A stretch of 64,000 bases of DNA from an uncultured Bacillota bacterium (GCA_947644695.1 CANSAJ010000003.1:8424-72423); one strand, 5' to 3'. Shown: positions 3,990 through 45,758, counted from the stretch's first letter. The notes: generated by a model not told the origin, from the letters alone. Translations and numbers: made by a program.

Positions 3990-5874
3990 TCTAACTTTAA
4001 GAGCTTCTACAATTTATAATAATCGAGTAGAGAAAACTTTTCATTTAAAGTATAATGAATACTTTTCCCCCTCACACCACCAAGCATATCGTTCGGTACT
4101 TGGCGGTTTAATTTGTAATAATATGTACTTTTAAATAGTGGTCTAGTAAATTTACTAGACCTCTTTTATTTAATCTTTCTTTAGATATTGCTTCTTTTAG
4201 TACCCATGTATTTCCAATAAAATATAAACCTCTTCTACAATTTGCTGTCATAAAAGCATTGTAATGGTCTATTCCTAGTTTTCTTAAAGATGTATATCTT
4301 TTCTTGATTTTCTTCCATTGTTTCCATATGACTACTCGTATCTTTCTTCTAATTCTTGCATCTAATTTATCAAGAAGTACTTTCATATCTGCAATTCTAA
4401 AATAGTTAACCCATCCATATATTAAATATTTTAATTCTTCTAATCTTTGGTTTAATGATATTCCTCTTTTCCTAAGAAGAATTTGATTTAATTTATAGAT
4501 TAATTTCTTTACTGATTTAATATGTGGCTTAGGTCTCCATATATTTTGATTAATCTTTTTGTAAAATCCAAAGCCTAAATATTTAATATCTTTTGGTCTT
4601 GCCACTTTACTCTTTTCTACATTTATTCTTAGTCCTAATTTCTTAGTTATAAATGTACTTACACTTTCCATCACTCTATTCGCTGCTTTCTCACTTTTTA
4701 CCATGATTAAACAATCATCTGCATACCTTACAAAATTTAAACCTCTTGCTTCCAATTCTTTATCTAATTCATTTAACATAATATTAGATAACAATGGACT
4801 TAAGTTTCCTCCTTGTGGTGTTCCTTTATGTGTTTTCTGTACAACTCCATCTTCCATTACTCCACTTTGCAAAAACTTTCTTATTAATGATATTACATCA
4901 TTATCTTTGATTGTTCTATGTATAATTGCCATTAATTTATCTTGGTTTACCTCATCAAAGAAAGATTGCAAATCTATGTCTACTATCCAGTCGTACCCAT
5001 CGTTAAAACATTCAAGCGCTTTTATAACTGCCTGTTCACAACTTCTTCCTAGTCTAAATCCATAAGAATTATTTGAAAATTGTTCCTCATAAATAGGTGT
5101 TAATACTTCTACTATTGCTTGTTGTATTACTCTATCTATTACACATGGTATTCCTAGTTTTCTCATTTTTCCATCTTCTTTTGGTATATAGACTCTTCTT
5201 ACAGGAAGTGGCTTATATTTTCTATTTCTTATTAATGTAAATATTTCTTCTTTATGTTCTTTGATATATGAAAATATTTCTTCAGTAGTTACTCCATCTA
5301 TACCACTTGCTCCTTTATTTTTGTAAACTTGCTTATATGCTTTGTTTAAATTATCTTTGGAAAGTATTTTCTCTAAAAGTTCCATATCTGTTCCTCTCTT
5401 TCTATTATCGTACATAGATTAACGTCTTTTATAGGATTTATTCTGACTTTTAATCTATTCCAGTATTAGTAATTAGAACTACAAATTATTCAGTCCTTCC
5501 TAATTTCTTAGTACTACGACCTCTGCTGACTTCTCATAGTTAACCTTTTTCGAACACAGATTTTCTCGTACTCCTCGTCGTTTCCCTTTCTATGTCTATG
5601 AGACCTCCCGCGGTAAGACATATATCTTTCCTCAATTAGCCACTTATTTTACTGCATAAAGTTACGAGTATCTATTTGGACTTTAGTTTGTATTGCAACC
5701 TTATCCGTTTACACAGCCTTATAATAAGTTTCTGTTCGTTAGCCCTCGATTTTGTTTCGCACTTCCTTTAGCCCCAAGCCTCACGACTGATGCTTTGCGT
5801 TTCCCTAACACTTCGCTGATACCTACGCGTGTAGTGGACTTTCACCACCTAGATATATGCCATGCACGGCACAC
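3990..5874 (-). mobile_element. Group II intron (3' boundary approximate)
   Basis: Minus-strand sense begins GTGTGCCGTGCATGG... at 5874 (GUGYG 5' consensus), followed by domain-I-like sequence (GTGCGAAACAAAATCGAGGGCTAACGAACAG). RT/maturase ORF lies in domain IV. Directly after the ORF stop there is a domain-V-like hairpin CCGCCAAGTACCGAACGATATGCTTGGTGG (about 4075-4107) and a G-rich domain-VI-like tail. Confidence 0.85.
4108..5415 (-). CDS. Group II intron reverse transcriptase/maturase (intron-encoded protein)
   Basis: 435 aa; RT domains 0-7 including a YADD active-site motif (RYADDCLIM), a maturase X domain and a C-terminal basic region; N-terminus LLEKILSKDNLNKAYKQVYKNKGASGIDGVT is typical of LtrA-like IEPs. 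Confidence 0.95.
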   Translation of the reverse strand: MYDNRKRGTDMELLEKILSKDNLNKAYKQVYKNKGASGIDGVTTEEIFSYIKEHKEEIFTLIRNRKYKPLPVRRVYIPKEDGKMRKLGIPCVIDRVIQQAIVEVLTPIYEEQFSNNSYGFRLGRSCEQAVIKALECFNDGYDWIVDIDLQSFFDEVNQDKLMAIIHRTIKDNDVISLIRKFLQSGVMEDGVVQKTHKGTPQGGNLSPLLSNIMLNELDKELEARGLNFVRYADDCLIMVKSEKAANRVMESVSTFITKKLGLRINVEKSKVARPKDIKYLGFGFYKKINQNIWRPKPHIKSVKKLIYKLNQILLRKRGISLNQRLEELKYLIYGWVNYFRIADMKVLLDKLDARIRRKIRVVIWKQWKKIKKRYTSLRKLGIDHYNAFMTANCRRGLYFIGNTWVLKEAISKERLNKRGLVNLLDHYLKVHIITN

Positions 5875-12997: not shown

Positions 12998-15793
12998 CTA
13001 ATTAACAAATAATGGTTTACCCATTTCTTGCTCAGTAAGTCTTATTGCTTCATAACAAACTTGTTTAAAACTTCTATCGCCAAATTGTGCTACTATAGTA
13101 AAGTTTTTGAATACTATTTCTCTAACTTGTGCAGTTAATGCATCTAATTTATCGAGGTACTCGTTTAAAACTTCTCTATTTGCTTGCTTTATTGTTTCAA
13201 GGGGTGCCTCTATATTTGTTCCATGTCTTTGATCTCCAAGAATTGCTGCAAATTTTTGCCTGGGTGGAATCACTGCTCCTTTAGCAAGTTCAGGAATTTG
13301 CGGAACTGATGCACGCCAAGATAAAAAGCTAAAAGGACTTATTCCTAAAAAGCTTACATTTTGAATTTTATCTAAAGCTTTATTTAAACCATTAAAAGGA
13401 ATAGAAACCACTTTGTTTATTCCTCTTATTATCGCATTAACTACAGCTTTAAACGCATTTACTATTCCATCTTTTATTCCATCAAAAATTTTTCCGCCTG
13501 TTGAAAATACTTCTTTTACTTTTTGCCATGCATTACTAAATGTATTCTTAAAAAATGATGCAACTGTTGAAAATACATTTTTTATTCCTGACCATGCTTG
13601 AGAGGCACCATTTTTTATATTAGACCACATATTAGAAAAAAAGTTTTTTATAGGAGTAATTACATTTTCATTAAACCAATTTCCAATTGATGAGAATATT
13701 TCACAAATTCCATTGTAAATATTTTGAAAAAGGCTTATGACAAAATCAAATAAATTTTTTATACCATTTATTAATCCTTCCATAATATAAATTCCAACAT
13801 TTTCAAATACTGTAGACGGGCTATGGATTCCAAAAAATTCTAATATTTTATTAAATAATTCACGAAATGCACCTATTACAAATTCAATTGCACCTACAAT
13901 ACCATTTGCTAAACCTATTAATATATCAGTAGCTAATTGTTCCCAGTTAATATTGGTTATAAAATTCCATATAGCATCTACAATTTTTTTACCTAATTCA
14001 CTCCAATTTATCTCTAAGAATAATTCTTGAATTGTATTAAACATACTATGTAAAGATTCAGATAGTTTAGTTGCTACAGCCGCCCAATCTATGCTTAAGA
14101 GTAAATTCCCTATACCTTTAAATGAGTTCCATATTGTTGTAATAATTGAACTACCAATTCCACCCCAATCAATACTAGTAATTGTATCAGATATTTTTTT
14201 ACCTAATTCATTCCACTTTATTTGAATAAGATAATCACTAACTTTGAATATTGCATCACGTAATCCTATACTAAAATTTGATAATACTTTAGGCCAATCT
14301 ATGTTTAAAAACATCTCTTGAAAACCTAAGACTGCTTCTCCAAATACTGATACAAGCCCTACCAACATTCCTGACCAATCAATATTAACTAAAAATTCAC
14401 TTATATTTGATCCGATTTTTGACCAATCTATGCCTTTAATTTTCTTTATAAGCCAATTTAGACCATCTATAAATCCTTGACTTATATATTTAGCAAGGCC
14501 TCCCCAATCTCCATTTGAAATTAACTCTTTCAATCTATTTAATATATTTAACAAAGTTGAATTAACATTATTAAGCCCACTATAGTCAATATTATTAACA
14601 TTTCCTGAGCCACTTCCTGTTGCATCTTTTCCTATTACATCTAATTTATCTATCTTACTTAATGAACCACTAGCATTATCTCCACTTTTTGCAGTGTCAT
14701 TTAAAGCTCCAGATAATTTCTTGGCATCAGATGTAGCATTTTTTAGGCTTGTTCCAAATATAGATGCAATAAAATTTGCGAATGTTGCTGTTAATTGATT
14801 TAATGCTTGCATCAATGTATTAATCATTGGAAGTATTGTATTATAAATTGGAGCAAATGCTGTAATTAGATTTCCTTTAATCTGCGCTAAATTTGAATTA
14901 AAGATGTTATTAGTTTTTAACATAGAAAGAAGACTATCTCTTAGTTTTGTTAAACTATTTCTTATTAAACTAAAAATCATTGCTGTTCCAATTAATCTAG
15001 TCATTTTAGTTTTAAATTTATCTAATCTATTTCCTATATCTTTAATCTGTTTTGAAACTCCATTTAAAGTTCCTTTACTTACTGTTTTAGTAAAATCTTT
15101 GGCTAATTTCCCTGTATTTTTTAGAGCATTTCCTGTTTTAGATAAACCTGTTCTTATTGGCTCTGTTTTATCTTTGTATACTGCTTTTTCTATTGATTCT
15201 TTTAAATTATTTGCTGTATTTTTAGATTCAGACATCTTATCATTTAAAATTTGAAATTTAGTTTTGGCTTCATTTATATCATTTTGTAATTTTGGATCAA
15301 CTTTATTTAACTCTTCATATTGATTTTTTAATTCACTTAGTTTTTCTTTTGTTTCAACAATTTCTGAATTTAAATTAGATCTTTCCTTTAAAACAATACT
15401 TCTTGATTTTTCATCTTCTGGACTGAACTTCTTATATTGTATTGAATTTCCATAAATATCATTTCCCTCTGTTAATATACCTTTTGAATCAATGTCAAAG
15501 AATATCTTTTCTGTTTTTTCTAGTTGACTATTTAAAGTTTTTAATTTATTTTCTGCCTCTTCTATATTTTTACTTATTTGGCTTAAAAAAGGACTTTGAC
15601 TTTTATCTTGTAACTCGATTAATTTATTTTTAACTTTATCAAGTGCAATTTCTTGACTTTTAATACTATCAACAGTTTTGTTATATTGCGTTATTAGTTT
15701 TTTAGTATCATCTGTAATACTTTTAAAATCTTTTTCTATTTTTTTATAATTTAATCTAGTATCAACTACTACAGCACCTTTCTTCTCCAGCAT
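12998..15793 (-). CDS. Tail tape measure protein
   Basis: 931 aa; N-terminal coiled-coil region, central hydrophobic segment, and many W-containing periodic repeats (IDWxx, INWxx). Confidence 0.85.
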   Translation of the reverse strand: MLEKKGAVVVDTRLNYKKIEKDFKSITDDTKKLITQYNKTVDSIKSQEIALDKVKNKLIELQDKSQSPFLSQISKNIEEAENKLKTLNSQLEKTEKIFFDIDSKGILTEGNDIYGNSIQYKKFSPEDEKSRSIVLKERSNLNSEIVETKEKLSELKNQYEELNKVDPKLQNDINEAKTKFQILNDKMSESKNTANNLKESIEKAVYKDKTEPIRTGLSKTGNALKNTGKLAKDFTKTVSKGTLNGVSKQIKDIGNRLDKFKTKMTRLIGTAMIFSLIRNSLTKLRDSLLSMLKTNNIFNSNLAQIKGNLITAFAPIYNTILPMINTLMQALNQLTATFANFIASIFGTSLKNATSDAKKLSGALNDTAKSGDNASGSLSKIDKLDVIGKDATGSGSGNVNNIDYSGLNNVNSTLLNILNRLKELISNGDWGGLAKYISQGFIDGLNWLIKKIKGIDWSKIGSNISEFLVNIDWSGMLVGLVSVFGEAVLGFQEMFLNIDWPKVLSNFSIGLRDAIFKVSDYLIQIKWNELGKKISDTITSIDWGGIGSSIITTIWNSFKGIGNLLLSIDWAAVATKLSESLHSMFNTIQELFLEINWSELGKKIVDAIWNFITNINWEQLATDILIGLANGIVGAIEFVIGAFRELFNKILEFFGIHSPSTVFENVGIYIMEGLINGIKNLFDFVISLFQNIYNGICEIFSSIGNWFNENVITPIKNFFSNMWSNIKNGASQAWSGIKNVFSTVASFFKNTFSNAWQKVKEVFSTGGKIFDGIKDGIVNAFKAVVNAIIRGINKVVSIPFNGLNKALDKIQNVSFLGISPFSFLSWRASVPQIPELAKGAVIPPRQKFAAILGDQRHGTNIEAPLETIKQANREVLNEYLDKLDALTAQVREIVFKNFTIVAQFGDRSFKQVCYEAIRLTEQEMGKPLFVN

Positions 15794-15801
15794 TCACCTC
15801 C

Positions 15802-16380
15802 TTATTTTTTAGTTTTATGAAACTGTTCAAAGAATTGTTTTTTCAATTTAGATTCTACTTTTTTAGTAGGTTCTAACTCTACTATATCTTTGATTTTTTT
15901 ATAATTCTGTTTTTCTTCGTCAGTAAGCTTTCCTTCTTGTTTTCTTGTACGATAATACATTAACTCTCCAAACATACAATCAGGACTCATATCCATAAAT
16001 AAGGATATAAACTTCCACCAATGAAGATTTTCTTTTTCTTCTATATCAATGTGATGTGTTTGATTTATACCACTAAAAATAAAGTTACCATCTTTACTAA
16101 AAGAATAAGTTCTAGGCTTTTTAACATTATTTTCTTCTTTAGGTTCTGCTCCACAATCAATAAACTTAATACCTTTTATTATAGCTTCTTCTAAATCACA
16201 TTCTGGTATTTCCTTTTTATAAAGAGCATGAACTAAAACATAAACTTGTTCTTCATAAAGTAAATCATTATCTTCAAATGCTAGAATAATATTTAAAACA
16301 GTTTTATAATCATAATTAATATCATAAATATTTTCATTTATTTTAATTTTAGTTGGTAGTTTTTGTGTAAGAATATTCAT
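15802..16380 (-). CDS. Tail assembly chaperone (G/GT-like, putative)
   Basis: Position between the major tail protein and the tape measure; overlapping partner ORF at 16380..16841. Confidence 0.4.
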   Translation of the reverse strand: MNILTQKLPTKIKINENIYDINYDYKTVLNIILAFEDNDLLYEEQVYVLVHALYKKEIPECDLEEAIIKGIKFIDCGAEPKEENNVKKPRTYSFSKDGNFIFSGINQTHHIDIEEKENLHWWKFISLFMDMSPDCMFGELMYYRTRKQEGKLTDEEKQNYKKIKDIVELEPTKKVESKLKKQFFEQFHKTKK

Positions 16381-20983: not shown

Positions 20984-22561
20984 TTATTTTGTAAATTCTT
21001 TTATTAAAACATCATTATTTTTTAAAATTACTCTTTTTACCCATTCATATCTTTTGTTAGATAATATTTTTTCTATATCTTCTATTGCATTTTCTGAAGT
21101 CATATCTGTTTTATGTAAATCAATAATAAAATGTTGTGCTTTTTCTTTTTGTCCTTTAAATTGATTCACCATAGTAGTTCCTAGTGTATTTCCTTCTGGT
21201 TCTTTTATTTCCCATATTACTTTTGATGTTTCTTCTATAAAATCTCCGGTTTTTATAGAAGGTGGATTTAATACTCTAGGCAGCATTTTTACATTTACCT
21301 TATTATTTTCGGCATACCATGTTGCTATATTAATTTCGTTTTCGGTATGGTCTAAAATTATGTTTTTATTATCAACAATATATTTTTTTCCATCAGAACC
21401 AATAACAAAGTCTTGATTAGTACAACTAACAGTCTTATCTTTTAAATTACTAACATATTCTCTATTATAATCTCTAGTTAACTTATTATCTTTTAACCAT
21501 TTATCAAATTCAGCGTTAACTTTCTTTAATTTATGACTTACTTTATCATATTCTTCTGAATCTATATCTTTAGATGCAACTTTTTCTCTTTTTAGTTTAC
21601 GTATTTTTCTTTCAAATGCTCTTTGTTTTTGATGTAATTTATATACTTCTGCATTTTTAATTTCATCAAGTATAGGATCTACTTTTTCCCATTCCCAAGT
21701 TGGTCTAAAATCATGTCCACAATTTATTCCCTTAAGCCCTAACATTTCACCATAACCTGTTGCTTCATAAAAATTGGGATATTCTTCACTTGAACCCTCC
21801 AGCATATATTTCTTACCTTGCCACTCAGCATGCGCTTCATAATCATGTTTCATGTATTTAGTTCTAACTCTAGCACCCAAATGTTGGTCAACATAGACTA
21901 AATTAGTTTCTAAATCTTTAGCATGTTCTAATTCAGAATCTCCAATTAATTTATTCATTCTAGTTATTACATCACGTCTAACTACTGCCTCTATTGAAAT
22001 TGTTTTACCACTTTCATAAGTAGCGCCTTTTATACCTTCTCTAGCAAATTCTTTTATACCTTCTCTTATTGACTCAGTATACGTTTTTATTCCACTAGCA
22101 GTTTCTATATAAGCTTTATTAAGTATTTTCATATAAGCTTCTTTAGTACTTTCTATTGCTTTAGTATCAATTAATCTCATTATGTTTTCAGTATCTTTAA
22201 GTGCTTCATCAATCAAATTATTTATTGATACACTTTTAAATAAATCTTTGGGATTGACATTTATTAACCCTTTATCAAAGTAACCTTGTAATATTTCTAA
22301 ATCTTCAATGTGTGTTCCGGATTTAGCTGCTATTTCTTTTAACACTTTTTCTATTTTTTTCTTATTGTTCTTGATTATTTTTAAGTTATCTCTATCTAAA
22401 GTACCTAAATCAGCGATTTTTTCTAAATACCATTCTAATGAGCCTTGAATACTTTTATAAGTTGTAAGCCTTTCTATAACTTTTCTAATAAGGTCTAATT
22501 CTATCTCATCATAAATATCAATAAGTGGCTTAAGTAGTTTATCAAATTGTATCTTATTCAT
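20984..22561 (-). CDS. Phage head morphogenesis protein (Mu F / SPP1 gp7-like minor capsid)
   Basis: 525 aa; conserved INCGHDFRP-type motif (HPNCRC-like) in the central domain; follows the portal gene. Confidence 0.7.
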   Translation of the reverse strand: MNKIQFDKLLKPLIDIYDEIELDLIRKVIERLTTYKSIQGSLEWYLEKIADLGTLDRDNLKIIKNNKKKIEKVLKEIAAKSGTHIEDLEILQGYFDKGLINVNPKDLFKSVSINNLIDEALKDTENIMRLIDTKAIESTKEAYMKILNKAYIETASGIKTYTESIREGIKEFAREGIKGATYESGKTISIEAVVRRDVITRMNKLIGDSELEHAKDLETNLVYVDQHLGARVRTKYMKHDYEAHAEWQGKKYMLEGSSEEYPNFYEATGYGEMLGLKGINCGHDFRPTWEWEKVDPILDEIKNAEVYKLHQKQRAFERKIRKLKREKVASKDIDSEEYDKVSHKLKKVNAEFDKWLKDNKLTRDYNREYVSNLKDKTVSCTNQDFVIGSDGKKYIVDNKNIILDHTENEINIATWYAENNKVNVKMLPRVLNPPSIKTGDFIEETSKVIWEIKEPEGNTLGTTMVNQFKGQKEKAQHFIIDLHKTDMTSENAIEDIEKILSNKRYEWVKRVILKNNDVLIKEFTK

Positions 22562-23938: not shown

Positions 23939-25294
23939 TCACATCCTTACATCAATCATAATCTTTTGATATTTTTCACTTGAATATTCTTGTGCATCCA
24001 AGTTATCAATATTTGATGTTCCATCGTCTAATCTTACATCATCATCCGATTCTTCATCCCACACAGCATTTTCGTATGCTTCTATTGTTTCCGTGCAGCA
24101 ATCTATTATGAAATATCTTAATTGTTCCATCATTGACAAGTAAAATCTAATCCGATCTATTATTTCTCCTTTAACTGCATTTTCTATACTCAAAGGTATT
24201 CTATTTTCTCTAAGTACCGCTTTCAATCCTCTTATCAATACTTGTTCTGCACTATCACAATAAACTGTAGTTAACATGGGATATTCTTTTAAACATTCCA
24301 ACACAAACACCAAAAATTCTTTTTCAAGTTCTTTTGGTGTTAATTCTCTCTTTATACGTCGTTCTTTAAGTGTTATTAGCTCTCTATATCCCTGTGTATA
24401 ACCTGTTAAATTGAAAGCAGTACTTGATTTATTTCCGCCAAAGTCAACACCCATGGTTACATGAATGAGTTTCTTTCTTAATGAATGATCATATTTACCG
24501 ATTTCGTCTTTATGATACCAATCTTCTTGAGTGATAATATTCTTATCGGTAAATGTAGTATATATTTTACCTTCTGCTGTCACCCATAATCCTAATATAT
24601 TTCTTTGATAGAATACTCCAGAGAACATTCTTTTAAATCTTTCTTTTACTTTTTCCGACAATGTTAAATTATCGTCCATTGTAAAATGTAAATATAATAG
24701 ATTTTTTTCTTTTCTTAAATCAACGTATTCTTTTTTAAACCAATGAGTCGGATTTTTTGGATTACAATTATACCAATACTTAGCACCTTCAATGCTGCAT
24801 CTAGCTTCTGCTTGAGTTACAAATGATTGTGGCATTAATGCTACTTCATCAAAAAAGACACCTGCTAGTGTCATACCTTGTATTAAGTCTTGTGAACTTT
24901 CATCTTTACCACCAAACATATAATAATTGTTTGTAATAGAACCTTTAGTAACTATAAGTAAATTATCTGTTCTTCTTTCATCAACTTTATATCCTAAACT
25001 TAAAGACTGTGACTTTAATGTGTTTATCACATTACGTCTTAATGACCCAATTGTCTTACCACATATTGCAAAATCTTGACCATCAAACTTCTCCATTGAC
25101 CAGTTTAGGAATGCTGGAGCCATTGAAATAGTTTTGCCACTTCTTACTGCTCCATCTGCTATTATTCCGTCATAATCTTTTACTGGACTATTATCACACC
25201 ACCAAGTTAGTATTTTAAGTTGTTTCTTTGAAAATCGTTGCCATTTAAAGTGTTTCTTCATCATCTTCACTCCAAATCTCGCTAGATTTATCAT
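23939..25294 (-). CDS. Terminase large subunit
   Basis: 451 aa; Walker A-like DGAVRSGKT; C-terminal nuclease-like acidic motifs; overlaps TerS. Confidence 0.85.
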   Translation of the reverse strand: MINLARFGVKMMKKHFKWQRFSKKQLKILTWWCDNSPVKDYDGIIADGAVRSGKTISMAPAFLNWSMEKFDGQDFAICGKTIGSLRRNVINTLKSQSLSLGYKVDERRTDNLLIVTKGSITNNYYMFGGKDESSQDLIQGMTLAGVFFDEVALMPQSFVTQAEARCSIEGAKYWYNCNPKNPTHWFKKEYVDLRKEKNLLYLHFTMDDNLTLSEKVKERFKRMFSGVFYQRNILGLWVTAEGKIYTTFTDKNIITQEDWYHKDEIGKYDHSLRKKLIHVTMGVDFGGNKSSTAFNLTGYTQGYRELITLKERRIKRELTPKELEKEFLVFVLECLKEYPMLTTVYCDSAEQVLIRGLKAVLRENRIPLSIENAVKGEIIDRIRFYLSMMEQLRYFIIDCCTETIEAYENAVWDEESDDDVRLDDGTSNIDNLDAQEYSSEKYQKIMIDVRM

Positions 25295-25763
25295 TTAATG
25301 CGTTTATAAATGAATTTATATCATTCTCATTATTAGGATTAATCTCATTAGGTTTATCTCTCCATTTATCAGGCTTTCTATTTTTAAGCCAAAATATTTG
25401 CGCTGTTGTATCAGCTGGAATATGAATTTCATCATATACTTCAATAACTTCTTCATATTCATTAGTTTTAAAACCTTTTTCATTATATTCTACTCGCTTT
25501 ACTTTAACATTCTTCAATACTTTAGCATTATAACCTTTAGTTTTTTTAAACAAAGCATTCTCTACTTCATAATCAACTATCTCTTTATTCTTTTTTATGG
25601 TGTTAAGAATGTCGGGATATTTCTTTTCCCAGTCATATAAAGTTTGTCGCTTGATTTTACAATTATTTGCTATTTGTTCATCAGTTAATCCATCACGCGC
25701 CCAACCAGCTAGCAAAGTTAAGCCTTCAGGAGTTAACCACTTCTCAACCTTGCTTTTAGCCAT
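25245..25763 (-). CDS. Terminase small subunit
   Basis: 172 aa; N-terminal HTH TDEQIANNCKIKRQTLYDWEKK typical of TerS. Confidence 0.7.
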   Translation of the reverse strand: MAKSKVEKWLTPEGLTLLAGWARDGLTDEQIANNCKIKRQTLYDWEKKYPDILNTIKKNKEIVDYEVENALFKKTKGYNAKVLKNVKVKRVEYNEKGFKTNEYEEVIEVYDEIHIPADTTAQIFWLKNRKPDKWRDKPNEINPNNENDINSFINALNDKSSEIWSEDDEETL

Positions 25764-25784
25764 TTATACTACTCTCCTTTAGTT

Positions 25785-25964
25785 TCTTCTTTTTTAGGTT
25801 CTATATATTTTTTTACTATTCCTTGTTTAGATAATTTCTCGTATCTTTCTTTAGTTATTTTATAAACATATCCAGGTTGTAATAATCCCAAGTGTTTATT
25901 CTCCTTATCCTTAAAATTTGATATCATTACTTCTACTTCTATCATTTATCATCTCTCCTATCTT
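25785..25964 (-). CDS. Small hypothetical protein (59 aa; MIEVEVMISNFKDKENKHLG...)
   Basis: Not in the ORF track (below its size cutoff) but has AGGAGAG 7 nt upstream of ATG. Confidence 0.35.
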
Positions 25965-25972
25965 ATATTTAA

Positions 25973-26046
25973 TGGTTACGGGTGAAAGATTTGAACTTTC
26001 ATTAATTGCTGCTGAGACAATTGTGTTTCAATTACACTAACCCGTG
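25973..26046 (-). tRNA. tRNA-like gene (74 nt incl. CCA), anticodon loop CUCAGCA giving anticodon CAG; non-canonical
   Basis: Minus sense CACGGGT-TA-GTGT-AATTGAA-ACAC-A-ATTGT-CTCAGCA-GCAAT-TAAT-GAAAG-TTCAAAT-CTTTC-ACCCGTA-A-CCA. Conserved U8, A14, A21, U33 and a TTCAAAT T-loop are all present. There is a C1.A72 mismatch, a pyrimidine at position 37, and a class-I (short variable arm) structure despite a Leu-type anticodon. Confidence 0.5.
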
Positions 26047-26353
26047 ATATAAAAAAAGAACATATCTCTACGTCCTTAATCCTAAGATAAATAAAAATTT
26101 AAACTTCTAGTATCATTATAGATACTGTACCAACAATATAAGGTTAGACTTTTTCGGATCTATCTCTAACCGCACTGTCATTTATATTGCCAATACACTA
26201 CCTATGAAGATAGCGTGCCATAACTTATGCTTTTGCATTTTCTATGGTCTTTAATAGTATAGGGGCGGCTAGTGTGAACTAGCATGAAATAATCTTATAA
26301 TTATTCCATGATACCATTTTACAACATATACCGTGCCATCGGAGTGCCATCTT

Positions 26354-26803
26354 TCATGAATTTAAGAAATCAGCAAATATTCGCTTTGCTTGTCTAACAC
26401 TAAAACCAGTAAGTTCGCTTATCAATTCCCAAGTTCTAGGTTTGCCATTATGATCACTCGCATACTTCTCATCTTCTCTTAAAATAATTACTTTAGCTTC
26501 ATCTTTATTTGCTAGTGCAATACTTCTTATTCTTTTTATAATTAAAGCCTCATAACTATTTATAGATTGCAGTAATGCTATTATCTTCGTATCTAGTTCC
26601 TCATTTTTAATAACATAATGAGAAAACTTATCAAAAGAAGCATGAGAAGAATCAACTATAATATCTTTTAATTTAACAGATTGTGGTTGAGTCTTATAAA
26701 GAGTTATTTTTTTATTAGTTAATTCTAAATCTAATTCATCATTTAAATCTCTTAATATTTTCTTAGCTTCTCTAATAGTTAAATGTTTTTGGACCATTAT
26801 CAT
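26354..26803 (-). CDS. ArpU-family / sigma-70-like phage late transcriptional regulator
   Basis: 149 aa; C-terminal region-4-like HTH ELISELTGFSVRQAKRIFADFLNS; sits at the early/late boundary next to the packaging genes. Confidence 0.65.
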   Translation of the reverse strand: MIMVQKHLTIREAKKILRDLNDELDLELTNKKITLYKTQPQSVKLKDIIVDSSHASFDKFSHYVIKNEELDTKIIALLQSINSYEALIIKRIRSIALANKDEAKVIILREDEKYASDHNGKPRTWELISELTGFSVRQAKRIFADFLNS

Positions 26804-26807
26804 AGTA

Positions 26808-27530
26808 TCACACTCCTAAAATTTCTCTAATCTTTTGTTTTCCTTTTTCATTGTATCTAAACGTTGAAACTTGCTTATTGCTATATCGCGACTTGTCTAG
26901 CACTTCTATTCCATATTCTTCCGTTTTAAGATTATTCTTATTTGATATTTTACCTATAGCATTTGCAGATATTCCAATTTCATTAGCAATTTCAGTGGCA
27001 GTATAGTATTTTTCTTCTAGTTTAGGTCTAGGCAATGTATTTTCTCCAAGTACAACTTCTAAAGCATTAACTACCAATAAATCTTTTGATATATTTGATA
27101 AGTTATACTTTTCAATAGTGTTTAAAATAAAATTTGCCTCTCTTACTTTTGCATTTTTTAGTCTTGCATCTGCATTTTTGCTTCGAATTTCTATATTTCC
27201 CTTATGATTAATTCTAATATATTCTTCCATTTTGTTAAATGCCTCTATGTACTTTAACTTCCATTCATCTGCTTTTGCTCCTGTAAATCCCATTACTAGA
27301 AAACTAAATCCATCTCTTGTTAGTAAGTATTCTTTTCTCAATTCTCCTTTAGAATCCTTATATTCATTAGGTATAAAGTAACGAAGCCAATTTTGGCTTG
27401 GTTGCCTATTTTGATAATTTTCAATACTTCTTAACACCTTACTATGTTCTTTTTTAAAATTCTCTGCTACTTCTCTACTACTTACAACCATTACCCCATT
27501 TTTATCTTCAACATTTATTTTTTCTATCAT
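26808..27530 (-). CDS. Phage regulatory protein Rha (N-terminal) + KilA-C-like antirepressor domain
   Basis: VVSSREVAENFKKEHSKVLRSIENY is the Rha signature; C-terminal YYTATEIANEIGISANAIGK is KilAC-like. Confidence 0.7.
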   Translation of the reverse strand: MIEKINVEDKNGVMVVSSREVAENFKKEHSKVLRSIENYQNRQPSQNWLRYFIPNEYKDSKGELRKEYLLTRDGFSFLVMGFTGAKADEWKLKYIEAFNKMEEYIRINHKGNIEIRSKNADARLKNAKVREANFILNTIEKYNLSNISKDLLVVNALEVVLGENTLPRPKLEEKYYTATEIANEIGISANAIGKISNKNNLKTEEYGIEVLDKSRYSNKQVSTFRYNEKGKQKIREILGV

Positions 27531-37331: not shown

Positions 37332-37749
37332 TTATCTTCCCTTTCTTAAAACTCTAGTTAATATCTCTAATCCTGTTAACCATTCACAATTTTCTTCTAG
37401 CATCTGATTCTCCCAATTTTCTACACTATCTTTTGGACCTGTATAATCTTCTGTGTGTAAATTTTCTATGTAGTCATATTCATCTTCATATATTTCATAA
37501 TCTGTTGTTATTAAATATATCTTCTTTAAATCTAGTTGATAAAGCGATAAAATTTTATTCAGCATTTAAAATCTTCCTCGCTTTCATGATTTCGTCAAAG
37601 AAATTATATTGTTTCCACAATCTTTCTCTTTCTTGGTAAAGTTTATTAAATGTCTCAAAGTTTTCGTAATCTGTTAAGATATTATCTATCGATTTATTTA
37701 CATCTTCTATTTTTTTATAAATCTCACTTTTCTTTTCTACAATATTCAT
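37332..37749 (-). CDS. Two small hypothetical proteins (37332..37565, 37555..37749)
   Basis: Overlapping ORFs of 77 and 64 aa downstream of the helicase gene. Confidence 0.35.
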
Positions 37750-44750: not shown

Positions 44751-45758
44751 ATGAAACGAGCAAATGGTATGGGCAGTGTATATAAACTTTCAGGAAAAAG
44801 AAGAAAACCCTACGCTGCCTCAGTTACAATAAATGGAAAGAGAGTTGTACTAGCTACCTTTCCAAAACCTAAACTAGCAATTGAATATTTAAGTAATTAC
44901 ATATGTAATCCATACGATATAGATTATTCAAAATATACAACACTTCAATTATTTGAAGAATGGTTTCCAACTTATAATAAATCCGATAGTTCAAAGAATA
45001 ATTATAAAAATGCTTTCTATCAACATTCTAAACCAGTACATAATAAAGCATTTATTGAATTGAGAAAAAAAGATATACAATATTTAGTTGATAATAGCAA
45101 TCTCAAATACACCGGAAGATCATACATAAAAATAGTCTTTTCAGCACTTTTTGAATACGCAAAGGAAAAAGAATTAGGAGTCAAAGAAAATTACGCTAGA
45201 GGCGTCAAATTAGGCGATAAGAACATATCTGTTATGCACAAATCTCTTACAGACAAAGATTTTGAAACTGTTTGTAATAATTCCGACAAAGAATTTGTTG
45301 ACATAATTATGGTTTACTTATATACCGGAGCACGGCCAAGTGAACTTTTAAAAATTACTAAAAAAAATGTTTTTTTAGAAGAAGATTATATGGTTGGCGG
45401 AATTAAAACAAAAGCAAGTAAAGACAGAATAATGCCTATTCATCCAAAAATTAAGAAAATAATTGAAAAACATTATCATAAAAATTCAATATACCTTTTT
45501 GAAAATATAAAAGGAGAACAAATAACATATAAAACTTTTGTTAAGAAATTTAAAGAAGCATTAAATACTTTAAATTTAGAAGAAGAATATAAACCACATG
45601 ATACAAGACATACATTCTCTACTAGAGCAAAATTATCTGGAATGGATGATTTATGTAGAAAATTAATTATGGGGCACGCTATTAATGATTTAACCGACAA
45701 TATTTATACTCATATACCTAAAGAAAAATTAATTGAGGAGGTGAAAAAATTAAAGTAA
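44751..45758 (+). CDS. int: Tyrosine site-specific recombinase (phage integrase)
   Basis: 335 aa; C-terminal catalytic region HDTRHTFSTRAKLSG ... LIMGHAINDLTDNIYTHIP (R, H-x-x-R, Y); the stop abuts the 23-bp att repeat. Confidence 0.85.
   Translation: MKRANGMGSVYKLSGKRRKPYAASVTINGKRVVLATFPKPKLAIEYLSNYICNPYDIDYSKYTTLQLFEEWFPTYNKSDSSKNNYKNAFYQHSKPVHNKAFIELRKKDIQYLVDNSNLKYTGRSYIKIVFSALFEYAKEKELGVKENYARGVKLGDKNISVMHKSLTDKDFETVCNNSDKEFVDIIMVYLYTGARPSELLKITKKNVFLEEDYMVGGIKTKASKDRIMPIHPKIKKIIEKHYHKNSIYLFENIKGEQITYKTFVKKFKEALNTLNLEEEYKPHDTRHTFSTRAKLSGMDDLCRKLIMGHAINDLTDNIYTHIPKEKLIEEVKKLK

Follow-up and report, generated by a model that had tools for sequence, protein, structure and literature searches.

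The 64,000-nucleotide (nt) stretch of DNA considered here (GCA_947644695.1 CANSAJ010000003.1:8424-72423, from an uncultured Bacillota bacterium; hereafter the window, with positions counted from its first letter) contains a prophage, and within the prophage a 74-nt transfer RNA (tRNA) gene with the anticodon CAG, which is the subject of this work. The host is a very AT-rich member of the Bacillota, and one protein encoded in the flank clusters with a Thomasclavelia cocleata protein. On the minus strand, the order of the prophage genes is a Rha-type regulator, an open reading frame (ORF) of 149 amino acids (aa), a spacer, the tRNA, a 58-aa ORF, the terminase small subunit gene terS, the terminase large subunit gene terL, the portal gene, a MuF/gp7-like gene, and the tail genes. 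The features of the locus are as follows, with the evidence in parentheses.

25973-26046, minus strand: tRNA with anticodon CAG, 74 nt, class I (4-nt variable loop), with an encoded CCA (ARAGORN, Rfam, family covariance model, covariation)
26012-26014, minus strand: anticodon CAG in the loop CUCAGCA, with C at position 37 (26011) (ARAGORN, Rfam, sequence reading)
25976-25977, minus strand: initiator-type acceptor end, with A72 (25977) unpaired opposite C1 (26046) and discriminator A73 (25976) (mismatch in all family members, other stem pairs kept)
25769-25945, minus strand: 58-aa ORF, whose start lies 27 nt past the CCA (39 homologues, AlphaFold2, Foldseek)
25245-25763, minus strand: terminase small subunit, the next gene in the operon (PHROG 309, E 1e-47; related loci)
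23939-25294, minus strand: terminase large subunit (Pfam Terminase_6N)
26047-26353, minus strand: non-coding spacer of 307 nt upstream of the tRNA (folding, promoter scan)
26354-26803, minus strand: 149-aa ORF with no family match (hidden Markov model (HMM) searches)
26808-27530, minus strand: Rha-type regulator
20984-22561, minus strand: MuF/SPP1-gp7-like minor capsid protein with a CdiA_C (PF18451) toxin-like C-terminal domain
44751-45758: integrase

An original prediction, made from the sequence alone, had placed a near-perfect cloverleaf at 25973-26046, and had proposed that a covariance-model score and the presence of compensatory changes in relatives would be informative about it. The cloverleaf is confirmed on the minus strand by both ARAGORN, which calls it tRNA-Leu(cag) and finds no other tRNA in the window, and Rfam, whose RF00005 model gives it 53 bits (E 1.5e-8), well above the gathering score of 29. 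The sequence, read directly, is CACGGGUUAGUGUAAUUGAAACACAAUUGUCUCAGCAGCAAUUAAUGAAAGUUCAAAUCUUUCACCCGUAACCA. It has U8, A14, A21, and U33, a T-loop of UUCAAAU, a 5-bp T-stem (GAAAG/CUUUC), and a CCA encoded at 25973-25975; at the acceptor end C1 (26046) stands opposite A72 (25977), followed by the pairs A2-U71 and C3-G70. Every feature that had been listed for it, including the C1.A72 mismatch, the loop CUCAGCA, the short variable arm, and the pyrimidine at position 37, is present, and its description as a tRNA-type gene with non-canonical identity features has held up, the most informative of these being C1.A72, a hallmark of initiators. The cloverleaf is the minimum-energy fold of the sequence (z = -2.7). 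The D-loop of the window copy is weakened, with a single G where GG is expected.

The tRNA belongs to a family of at least 17 diverged sequences, of which 13 distinct members were used for alignment statistics. Family loci (designated here by L numbers) were gathered in two ways: through the neighbouring TerS, which yielded homologous CAG tRNAs of 72-75 nt, and, independently of the tRNA sequence, through the small ORF, which nearly always has a CAG tRNA 13-27 nt upstream of it. Later scans added more members (L168, L178, L126, and L196-L201), and two metagenome contigs carry identical copies of the window tRNA. The GC content of all carriers is 25-29%. Among the 13 aligned members, standard pairing is found in 99.6% of 259 stem cells and double-sided (compensatory) changes occur at 11 of the 20 stem pairs; the observed covariation is reached by none of 500 shuffled controls, and slid partners are only about 40-55% paired. 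(An earlier version of the covariation analysis was also made with six sequences.) The elbow pair 19-56 covaries as well, being A-U in L116 and L117 and U-A in L118, and is mismatched in several members. U8, A14, U33, U54, and A58 are conserved. With a covariance model of the family, members score 84-96 bits (88 bits for the window tRNA), as against at most 46 bits for other tRNAs of the same phages; a sister of the family, L020, which has the anticodon UUC and also C1.A72, scores 63 bits.

The element is a functional phage tRNA gene, whose cloverleaf and elbow pair are under purifying selection. A degenerate tRNA, one of the options left by the original prediction, is ruled out, as the diverged family keeps every stem by compensatory change. 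Another of its options, a packaging or att-related DNA site, has likewise not survived: the covariation keeps RNA pairing, the tRNA and its small ORF precede differing terminase families (Terminase_6N and Terminase_3), and the integrase lies 19 kb away. Taken as a whole, the proposal that the element is non-functional, whether as a tRNA pseudogene in decay, a cloverleaf arisen by chance, or a pac or att site acting at the level of DNA, can point to the weakened D-loop and C37 of the window copy, and is scarcely credible given the Rfam score, the nearly complete pairing with compensatory changes that include a tertiary pair, the differing terminases, and the position of the integrase.

The anticodon CAG is invariant in the family, including in those members found without use of the tRNA sequence. 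U33, A73-CCA, and the 4-nt variable loop are invariant as well, and A38 is invariant among the 13 aligned members. Position 1:72 is unpaired in every member, mostly as C.A and in several as A.A, and U1-A72 is never seen. (U1 is the AT-favoured mutation that would repair 1:72 by pairing with A72.) At position 37 most members have U, the window has C, and three have A; G is never found there, so the m1G37 that is typical of CUN-reading elongators cannot be made. In the 13 members, pair 2:71 is G-C in 8 and A-U in 5, and pair 3:70 is C-G in 5 and U-A in 8; G2-C71 and C3-G70, the Fmt determinants, occur together only in L111 and L122, and L122 has the exact initiator acceptor stem CGCGGG/CCCGCA. 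Within the anticodon stem, G30-C40 is the sole invariant pair, while 29:41 is A-U in 10 members, G-C in 2, and U-A in 1 (that is, A-U or G-C in 12 of the 13), and 31:39 is U.G in 10, U-A in 2, and C-G in 1. With elongator tRNA-Leu the family shares the discriminator A73; of the tRNA-Leu features A15-U48 and G18G19, A15 is invariant, position 48 is U, A, or C, and GG is present in about half of the members, and the long variable arm of type II tRNA-Leu is absent from all of them. A pairing of nucleotide -1 with A73, in the style of tRNA-His, is not supported in the family, as nucleotide -1 is not conserved. The fold, the CAG anticodon, and the unpaired 1:72 are under strong selection.

In its acceptor end and body the family resembles bacterial tRNA-fMet, with which it shares the unpaired 1:72 (C.A), A73-CCA, G-C pairs from 4:69 to 6:67, G30-C40, the class-I body and, in many members, G2-C71 and/or C3-G70. 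The 1:72 mismatch, with the 2:71 and 3:70 pairs, is the major Fmt determinant (PMC5389676), and of the three G-C pairs that typify the initiator anticodon stem, the middle one, G30-C40, suffices in E. coli, with au/GC/gu initiators occurring naturally (PMC5389676). A scan with this scaffold, in which the anticodon and position 1 were left free, recovered 63 distinct phage tRNAs. U1-A72 is present in 33 of these, mostly Gln(UUG), and the other 30 have an unpaired 1:72, with the anticodons CAU (8), CAG (7), and CUG (7) and also CCU, UGU, UAU, and UUC. Some of the CAU members (for example L164, L162, and L195) have the exact initiator acceptor stem and a GGG/CCC anticodon stem. By the family model, the closest relatives that lack CAG are CCU, CAU, and CUG tRNAs that share the acceptor end and score 70-78 bits, and the anticodon arm of one of the CAU tRNAs (L151) differs little from that of the CAG family beyond the exchange of CAU for CAG. 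The wider set with unpaired 1:72 and A73 (L124-L195; for example L151, L164, L170, L150, L192, L149, and L142) contains several tRNAs that share U31.G39 and U37-A38, and some of the CUG (G.A) scaffold tRNAs lie on contigs of about 5 kb (L144, L158, L159, L167, and L187).

The same relatives bear on the idea that the tRNA is mischarged and recodes CUG by inserting a residue other than Leu. The scaffold is common to phage tRNA-Gln(UUG/CUG) and CAU tRNAs, and the acceptor stem of the Gln tRNA in L191 is that of L049 except at nucleotide 1. However, GlnRS and GluRS need U35 and MetRS needs U36, and sites with CUG behave like positions for Leu or another hydrophobic residue, which leaves recoding a very improbable explanation. 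Reassignment of CUG is ruled out, because CUG sites match Leu in homologues at 77%, which is within the range of other Leu codons.

The use of CUG itself is low. The codon accounts for 12 of the 9,406 codons in phage ORFs (about 1.3 per 1000, counted over genes of at least 120 aa), compared with 4 of 6,755 in flanking host ORFs, and its frequency is 0-2.1 per 1000 in carriers and 0-2.2 per 1000 in AT-rich non-carriers, so that no higher usage is seen in carriers relative to these. The small ORF has no conserved CUG, with a single CUG across 14 sequences. Within codons 2-6, 6 CUG codons were observed across carriers where 1.9 were expected, a weak signal after allowing for relatedness and for one spurious ORF. 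(In two genes of the window, at about 37332-37565 and at 15788-15793, both on the minus strand, the first two codons are ATG-CTG, against an expectation of about 0.08 from the usage of CUG, a pattern picked out post hoc.) Because CUG is rare, is no commoner in carriers, and behaves as Leu, codon supply is a weak explanation for the tRNA. The suggestion in the original prediction of a tRNA for a codon rare in the host is possible but gains nothing from the counts: CUG is rare in the phage, and neither a raised use in carriers nor a conserved CUG in the neighbouring gene is seen.

Despite this, the main rival to the reading favoured below, and only a little less probable, is a CUG elongator of unusual form, which would be charged with Leu by the host LeuRS through A73 and serve rare late-gene CUG codons that the AT-rich host may read poorly, with the 1:72 mismatch and pyrimidine 37 as tolerated quirks. 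It accords with the invariant anticodon, with the 12 CUG codons and their alignment with Leu, with the elongator-like U11-A24 and Y31:R39, and with expression of the tRNA gene along with the late genes. Against it stand the scarcity of CUG and its similar use in carriers and AT-rich non-carriers, the conservation of the unpaired 1:72, which is kept more strictly than any other feature of the family although it classically bars use by EF-Tu, and the lack of both a long variable arm and G37; in addition, a normal 85-nt type II Leu(UAA) tRNA adjoins the CAG tRNA in L118, and an elongator leaves the CUG at the start of the tape-measure gene, described below, unexplained. Bacteria very seldom have a type I tRNA-Leu, and the example from Streptomyces is one that E. 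coli LeuRS cannot charge (PMC6614811). This Streptomyces coelicolor type I tRNA-Leu(CAA) is like the CAG family in its Leu anticodon, its short variable loop, and its A73, but its acceptor stem is paired in the normal way, and it needs a specialised LeuRS domain for charging (PMC6614811). Even as an elongator, the CAG tRNA would be a rare case in nature of a class-I tRNA that has a Leu anticodon and functions with 1:72 unpaired and pyrimidine 37, and it would challenge the usual rules for both EF-Tu and LeuRS.

Carriers of the tRNA were scanned for a CUG preceded by a Shine-Dalgarno (SD) sequence. The only consistent match was in the tape-measure gene, which makes that gene the candidate client of the tRNA, and no further orphan SD-plus-CUG starts were found in the scanned carriers. 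(An apparent CUG start in L095 was ruled out, since a well-placed SD and ATG lie 27 nt downstream.) The corresponding features of the window are:

12998-15793, minus strand: tape-measure protein gene of 931 codons, candidate client (similarity to the tape-measure proteins of phiCD38-2 and of a C. perfringens phage)
15788-15803, minus strand: its start region, with the SD AAGGAGGTGA (15794-15803), ATG (15791-15793), and CTG (15788-15790)

In L200, a relative of the window phage, the sequence reads AAGGAGGTG-TTTTA-CTG-GAG-AAA-AAA-GGT..., that is, an SD, 5 nt, and CTG. From the upstream stop to this CTG, none of ATG, GTG, and TTG occurs in frame, and the conserved peptide LEKKGAVVVDT starts exactly at the CTG; the deposited tape-measure call (10489) begins 13 codons downstream of the conserved CUG. 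In a more distant carrier, L168, the sequence is AAGGAGGTG-TTATATGT-CTG-GCT-ATT-AAA..., with 8 nt between the SD and CTG; the ATG does not share the frame of the CTG, and a further canonical start is first met 84 codons downstream. The start in the window is AAGGAGGTGA-ATG-CTG-GAG-AAG-AAA-GGT.... Relatives that lack the tRNA were found through the adjacent Gp15-type chaperone gene; the tRNA is absent from the whole genome in three of them and, in phiCD38-2 and vB_CpeS-1181, from the initial 21-26 kb, in which the terS region is contained. The homologous start is an SD followed by ATG in phiCD38-2 (MADGSIIIDT), BG3P (MADGTIVIDT), MT835524 (MADGSIIFDT), and Dulem virus 35 (MAKKADGSVYINT), and in vB_CpeS-1181 it is probably an ATA after a strong SD (L203, at about 13578), at the point where BG3P has ATG. 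CUG is therefore present at the tape-measure start in all three of the carriers for which this region is available and in none of the five tRNA-less relatives (ATG in 4, ATA in 1). A tail-chaperone query of viral contigs and a search for homologues of the tape-measure N-terminus gave no match.

Bacterial initiation is thought to use one initiator tRNA, which reads AUG and, by mismatch, also GUG and UUG and, in rare cases, CUG; to our knowledge, other anticodons on initiators are known only from laboratory constructs. The leading reading of the CAG tRNA, which we favour tentatively, is that it is a tRNA of initiator type with which translation of the tape-measure gene begins at CUG. This is favoured because the acceptor end is initiator-like, U1 is never seen, some of the related tRNAs have CAU, and G30-C40 is invariant; because the elongation demand for CUG is negligible and is not raised in carriers; because the CUG at the tape-measure start goes with the presence of the tRNA (3/3 versus 0/5); and because position 37 is never G and initiators with a changed anticodon work in vivo (PMC6393288). 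Such initiators start at the matching codon, and unformylated ones are split between IF2 and EF-Tu and so take part in elongation too (PMC6393288). The CAG family is like the engineered ones, such as the amber i-tRNA-CUA, in joining an initiator acceptor end to an anticodon other than CAU, an arrangement that in those tRNAs leads to initiation at the complementary non-AUG codon (PMC6393288); unlike the family, which is natural and phage-borne, they were built in the laboratory, retain the three G-C pairs, and receive Gln or Met.

In the mechanism that is envisaged, RNase P and 3' processing would release the tRNA upon late-gene transcription, and a host synthetase would charge it, either LeuRS or, alternatively, MetRS given the presence of C34 and A35. 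(LeuRS is the only anticodon-independent synthetase that we know to use A73.) The unpaired 1:72 would make the charged tRNA a substrate for tRNA formyltransferase and a poor ligand for EF-Tu. The tRNA could then pair perfectly with the CUG that lies 6-10 nt past the strong tape-measure SD and start the protein there, and synthesis of the tape-measure protein would thus depend on a phage-made tRNA. A fuller version, in which this is a natural alternative initiator tRNA of temperate phages in very AT-rich Bacillota, made only with the late operon and starting the tape-measure protein at CUG, and in which phages may recycle initiator scaffolds with new anticodons (CAG, CUG, CCU, UAU, and others), is put forward with somewhat greater reserve.

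Several observations weigh against initiation at CUG by this tRNA. Unlike tRNA-fMet, the family has CAG rather than CAU and usually U at position 37; the three consecutive G-C pairs of initiators (29:41, 30:40, and 31:39) are absent, with only 30:40 kept, 31-39 is reversed relative to the initiator G31-C39, the window has U29-A41, and the invariant U11-A24 is elongator-like, in place of the initiator A11-U24. The presence of an unpaired 1:72 on tRNAs with the anticodons CUG, CCU, UGU, UAU, and UUC argues that the mismatch has a more general cause. At the proposed start, the window has an in-frame ATG directly before the CTG of the tape-measure gene, the out-of-frame ATG of L168 could reflect a 1-nt assembly indel, and only three carriers have the tape-measure region, two of which are related to each other. 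Tail genes also seem to start at non-AUG codons in phages without the tRNA: besides the ATA of vB_CpeS-1181, phiCD38-2 has a likely ATT start after GGAGGGAGGG (L202, 16958), ahead of the annotated gp18, so that the CUG could be no more than a weak start, recognised by the ordinary initiator. The association of the tRNA with its small ORF has an exception in L123, which has the ORF without the tRNA, the only such case among loci ascertained through the small ORF. Finally, charging presents a difficulty. MetRS requires CAU, and we know of no synthetase that charges such a tRNA. The failure of E. coli LeuRS to charge type I tRNA-Leu (PMC6614811) counts here as it does for an elongator.

Apart from L123, the tRNA and the small ORF travel together. 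Among 81 loci found through TerS or the 149-aa ORF (L010-L090), the small ORF is present only in the 6 that have a CAG tRNA, and the two form a fixed two-gene module at the head of the packaging operon. The 58-aa ORF product is predicted with confidence (AlphaFold2 model, pLDDT 88) to have a fold like that of the C-terminal domain of gpFI, the packaging accessory factor of lambda; the top Foldseek match is 2LSM, with a probability of 0.98 and a TM of about 0.6 at a weak E-value. The original prediction had put the tRNA directly between TerS and an ArpU-like late regulator, and this requires correction, as the 58-aa ORF intervenes on the terS side and the 307-nt spacer on the other, and the upstream 149-aa ORF has no match to ArpU or sigma HMMs, so that the label is unverified.

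The arrangement around the tRNA is compact. In 9 of the 13 lineages with a mismatch tRNA (the CAG family and L020), the stop of an upstream small ORF falls between -4 and +5 nt from nucleotide 1 of the tRNA, and in the mismatch-tRNA lineages the gap from the CCA to the next start codon is 13-27 nt; for the canonical Asn, Lys, Trp, and Ile tRNAs that GC-richer relatives have in this slot, the two gaps are 30-81 and 40-179 nt. The upstream ORFs, which are often hydrophobic and encode 25-40 aa, abut or overlap nucleotide 1 in L092 (about 4706), L095 (about 769), L114 (about 2402), L118 (about 2404), and L020 (about 2695). Since the stop abuts the tRNA, cleavage by RNase P would end the upstream mRNA at its stop codon or, in L092 and L020, inside it. 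A scan of the window found neither a sigma-70-type promoter nor a terminator on the tRNA strand, and because there is no room for a promoter of its own, the tRNA must, we infer, be excised from the late polycistronic transcript.

This compactness raises the possibility that the tRNA is above all a cis-acting processing signal (tRNA punctuation), which divides upstream transcripts from the packaging mRNA and sets the 5' end of the latter through RNase P and 3'-end processing, with decoding secondary. The tight spacing on both sides, the looser spacing of the canonical tRNAs in the same slot, the lack of a promoter or terminator, and the fixed linkage to the first packaging gene all fit such a role. 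However, a pure processing signal would not hold the anticodon and its loop constant over at least 17 lineages, L123 has the operon without the tRNA, and the window copy has a 307-nt spacer and no abutting ORF; we therefore regard it as unlikely. The spacer itself folds far better than shuffled sequences (z = -4.0, with 0 of 100 shuffles as stable), and it may be a late-operon leader or an element for termination or antitermination. It contains three ATGGCAC motifs, GC-rich hairpins, and a U-tract right before the tRNA. No T-box leader was found in the window.

The slot upstream of terS holds other tRNAs in other phages. The GC-richer TerS relatives have one canonical tRNA there (L030 2766-2838, L081 27-100, and others), and among the TerS relatives the Lys(UUU)/A73 and Asn(GUU)/G73 tRNAs have almost the same scaffold with a joint change of anticodon and discriminator, which looks like a natural switch of identity. 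Lys(UUU), Asn(GUU), Trp(CCA), and Glu(UUC) tRNAs, all of which are found in this slot in relatives, are known targets of nucleases. It is conceivable, in line with proposals for other phage tRNAs, that the CAG tRNA is an anti-defence replacement, made insensitive to a host tRNA-targeting nuclease or toxin by its atypical loop, class-I shape, and acceptor end, and phage tRNAs with altered anticodon loops do evade anticodon nucleases (PMC10264068, PMC11555353). With CUG occurring about once per thousand codons, though, the host would gain little by targeting its tRNA and the phage little by replacing it, and the tRNA is not correlated with the MuF toxin domain of the phage; replacement of this kind seems quite improbable. 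The CAG tRNA is like phage tRNAs that serve codon supply or evasion of defence in being a single gene near the packaging genes of a temperate phage, with an atypical anticodon loop (PMC10264068), and in having relatives with other tRNAs in the same slot, but unlike them its cognate codon is almost unused by the phage, and its distinctive part is the acceptor end rather than the anticodon loop alone.

What occupies the position of the MuF toxin domain varies: L092 has an ADP-ribosyltransferase domain there, and the domain of L095 is unassigned. The MuF protein of the window is a MuF-type polymorphic toxin, given that its C-terminal domain differs among L092, L095, and the window. A link between the tRNA and the phage's own MuF toxin is ruled out by these different domains in other CAG-tRNA carriers, and a sequence search of the PDB with the toxin domain gave no match.

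No description of such a tRNA family was found in the searched literature, and the module was not found in the cultured phages or plasmids of local collections: a blastn search of cultured phages with the tRNA and a tblastn search of phages and plasmids with the small ORF gave no match. An exact 19-mer had only chance matches in species-representative genomes, two viral scans with tRNA patterns returned nothing or contigs that were already known, and a metagenome scan returned duplicates only. If the tRNA does initiate at CUG, it would represent a new means of viral gating of structural-gene expression, leaving one essential tail gene under the private control of the phage, and would provide a ready-made part for orthogonal initiation. 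The family deserves experimental follow-up. There is also a consequence for annotation, in that gene callers truncate the tape-measure gene in these phages (L200) and call a spurious 31-aa ORF over the tRNA, just upstream of the small ORF (L196-L201; for example L196 9811-9906).

Two other genes were seen near these loci. In L122, an RNA ligase (PF09414) gene at 29-655 lies about 1.7 kb upstream of the module and recalls the tRNA-repair genes of phages. In the window, a group II intron (4108-5790, minus strand) lies just past the end of the prophage late genes. Rfam D1-D4 models place its RNA domains at 5493-5563 and 5618-5790, with 49 and 119 bits, and its reverse transcriptase (RT)/maturase ORF is at 4108-5415 (TIGR04416, E 1e-125).
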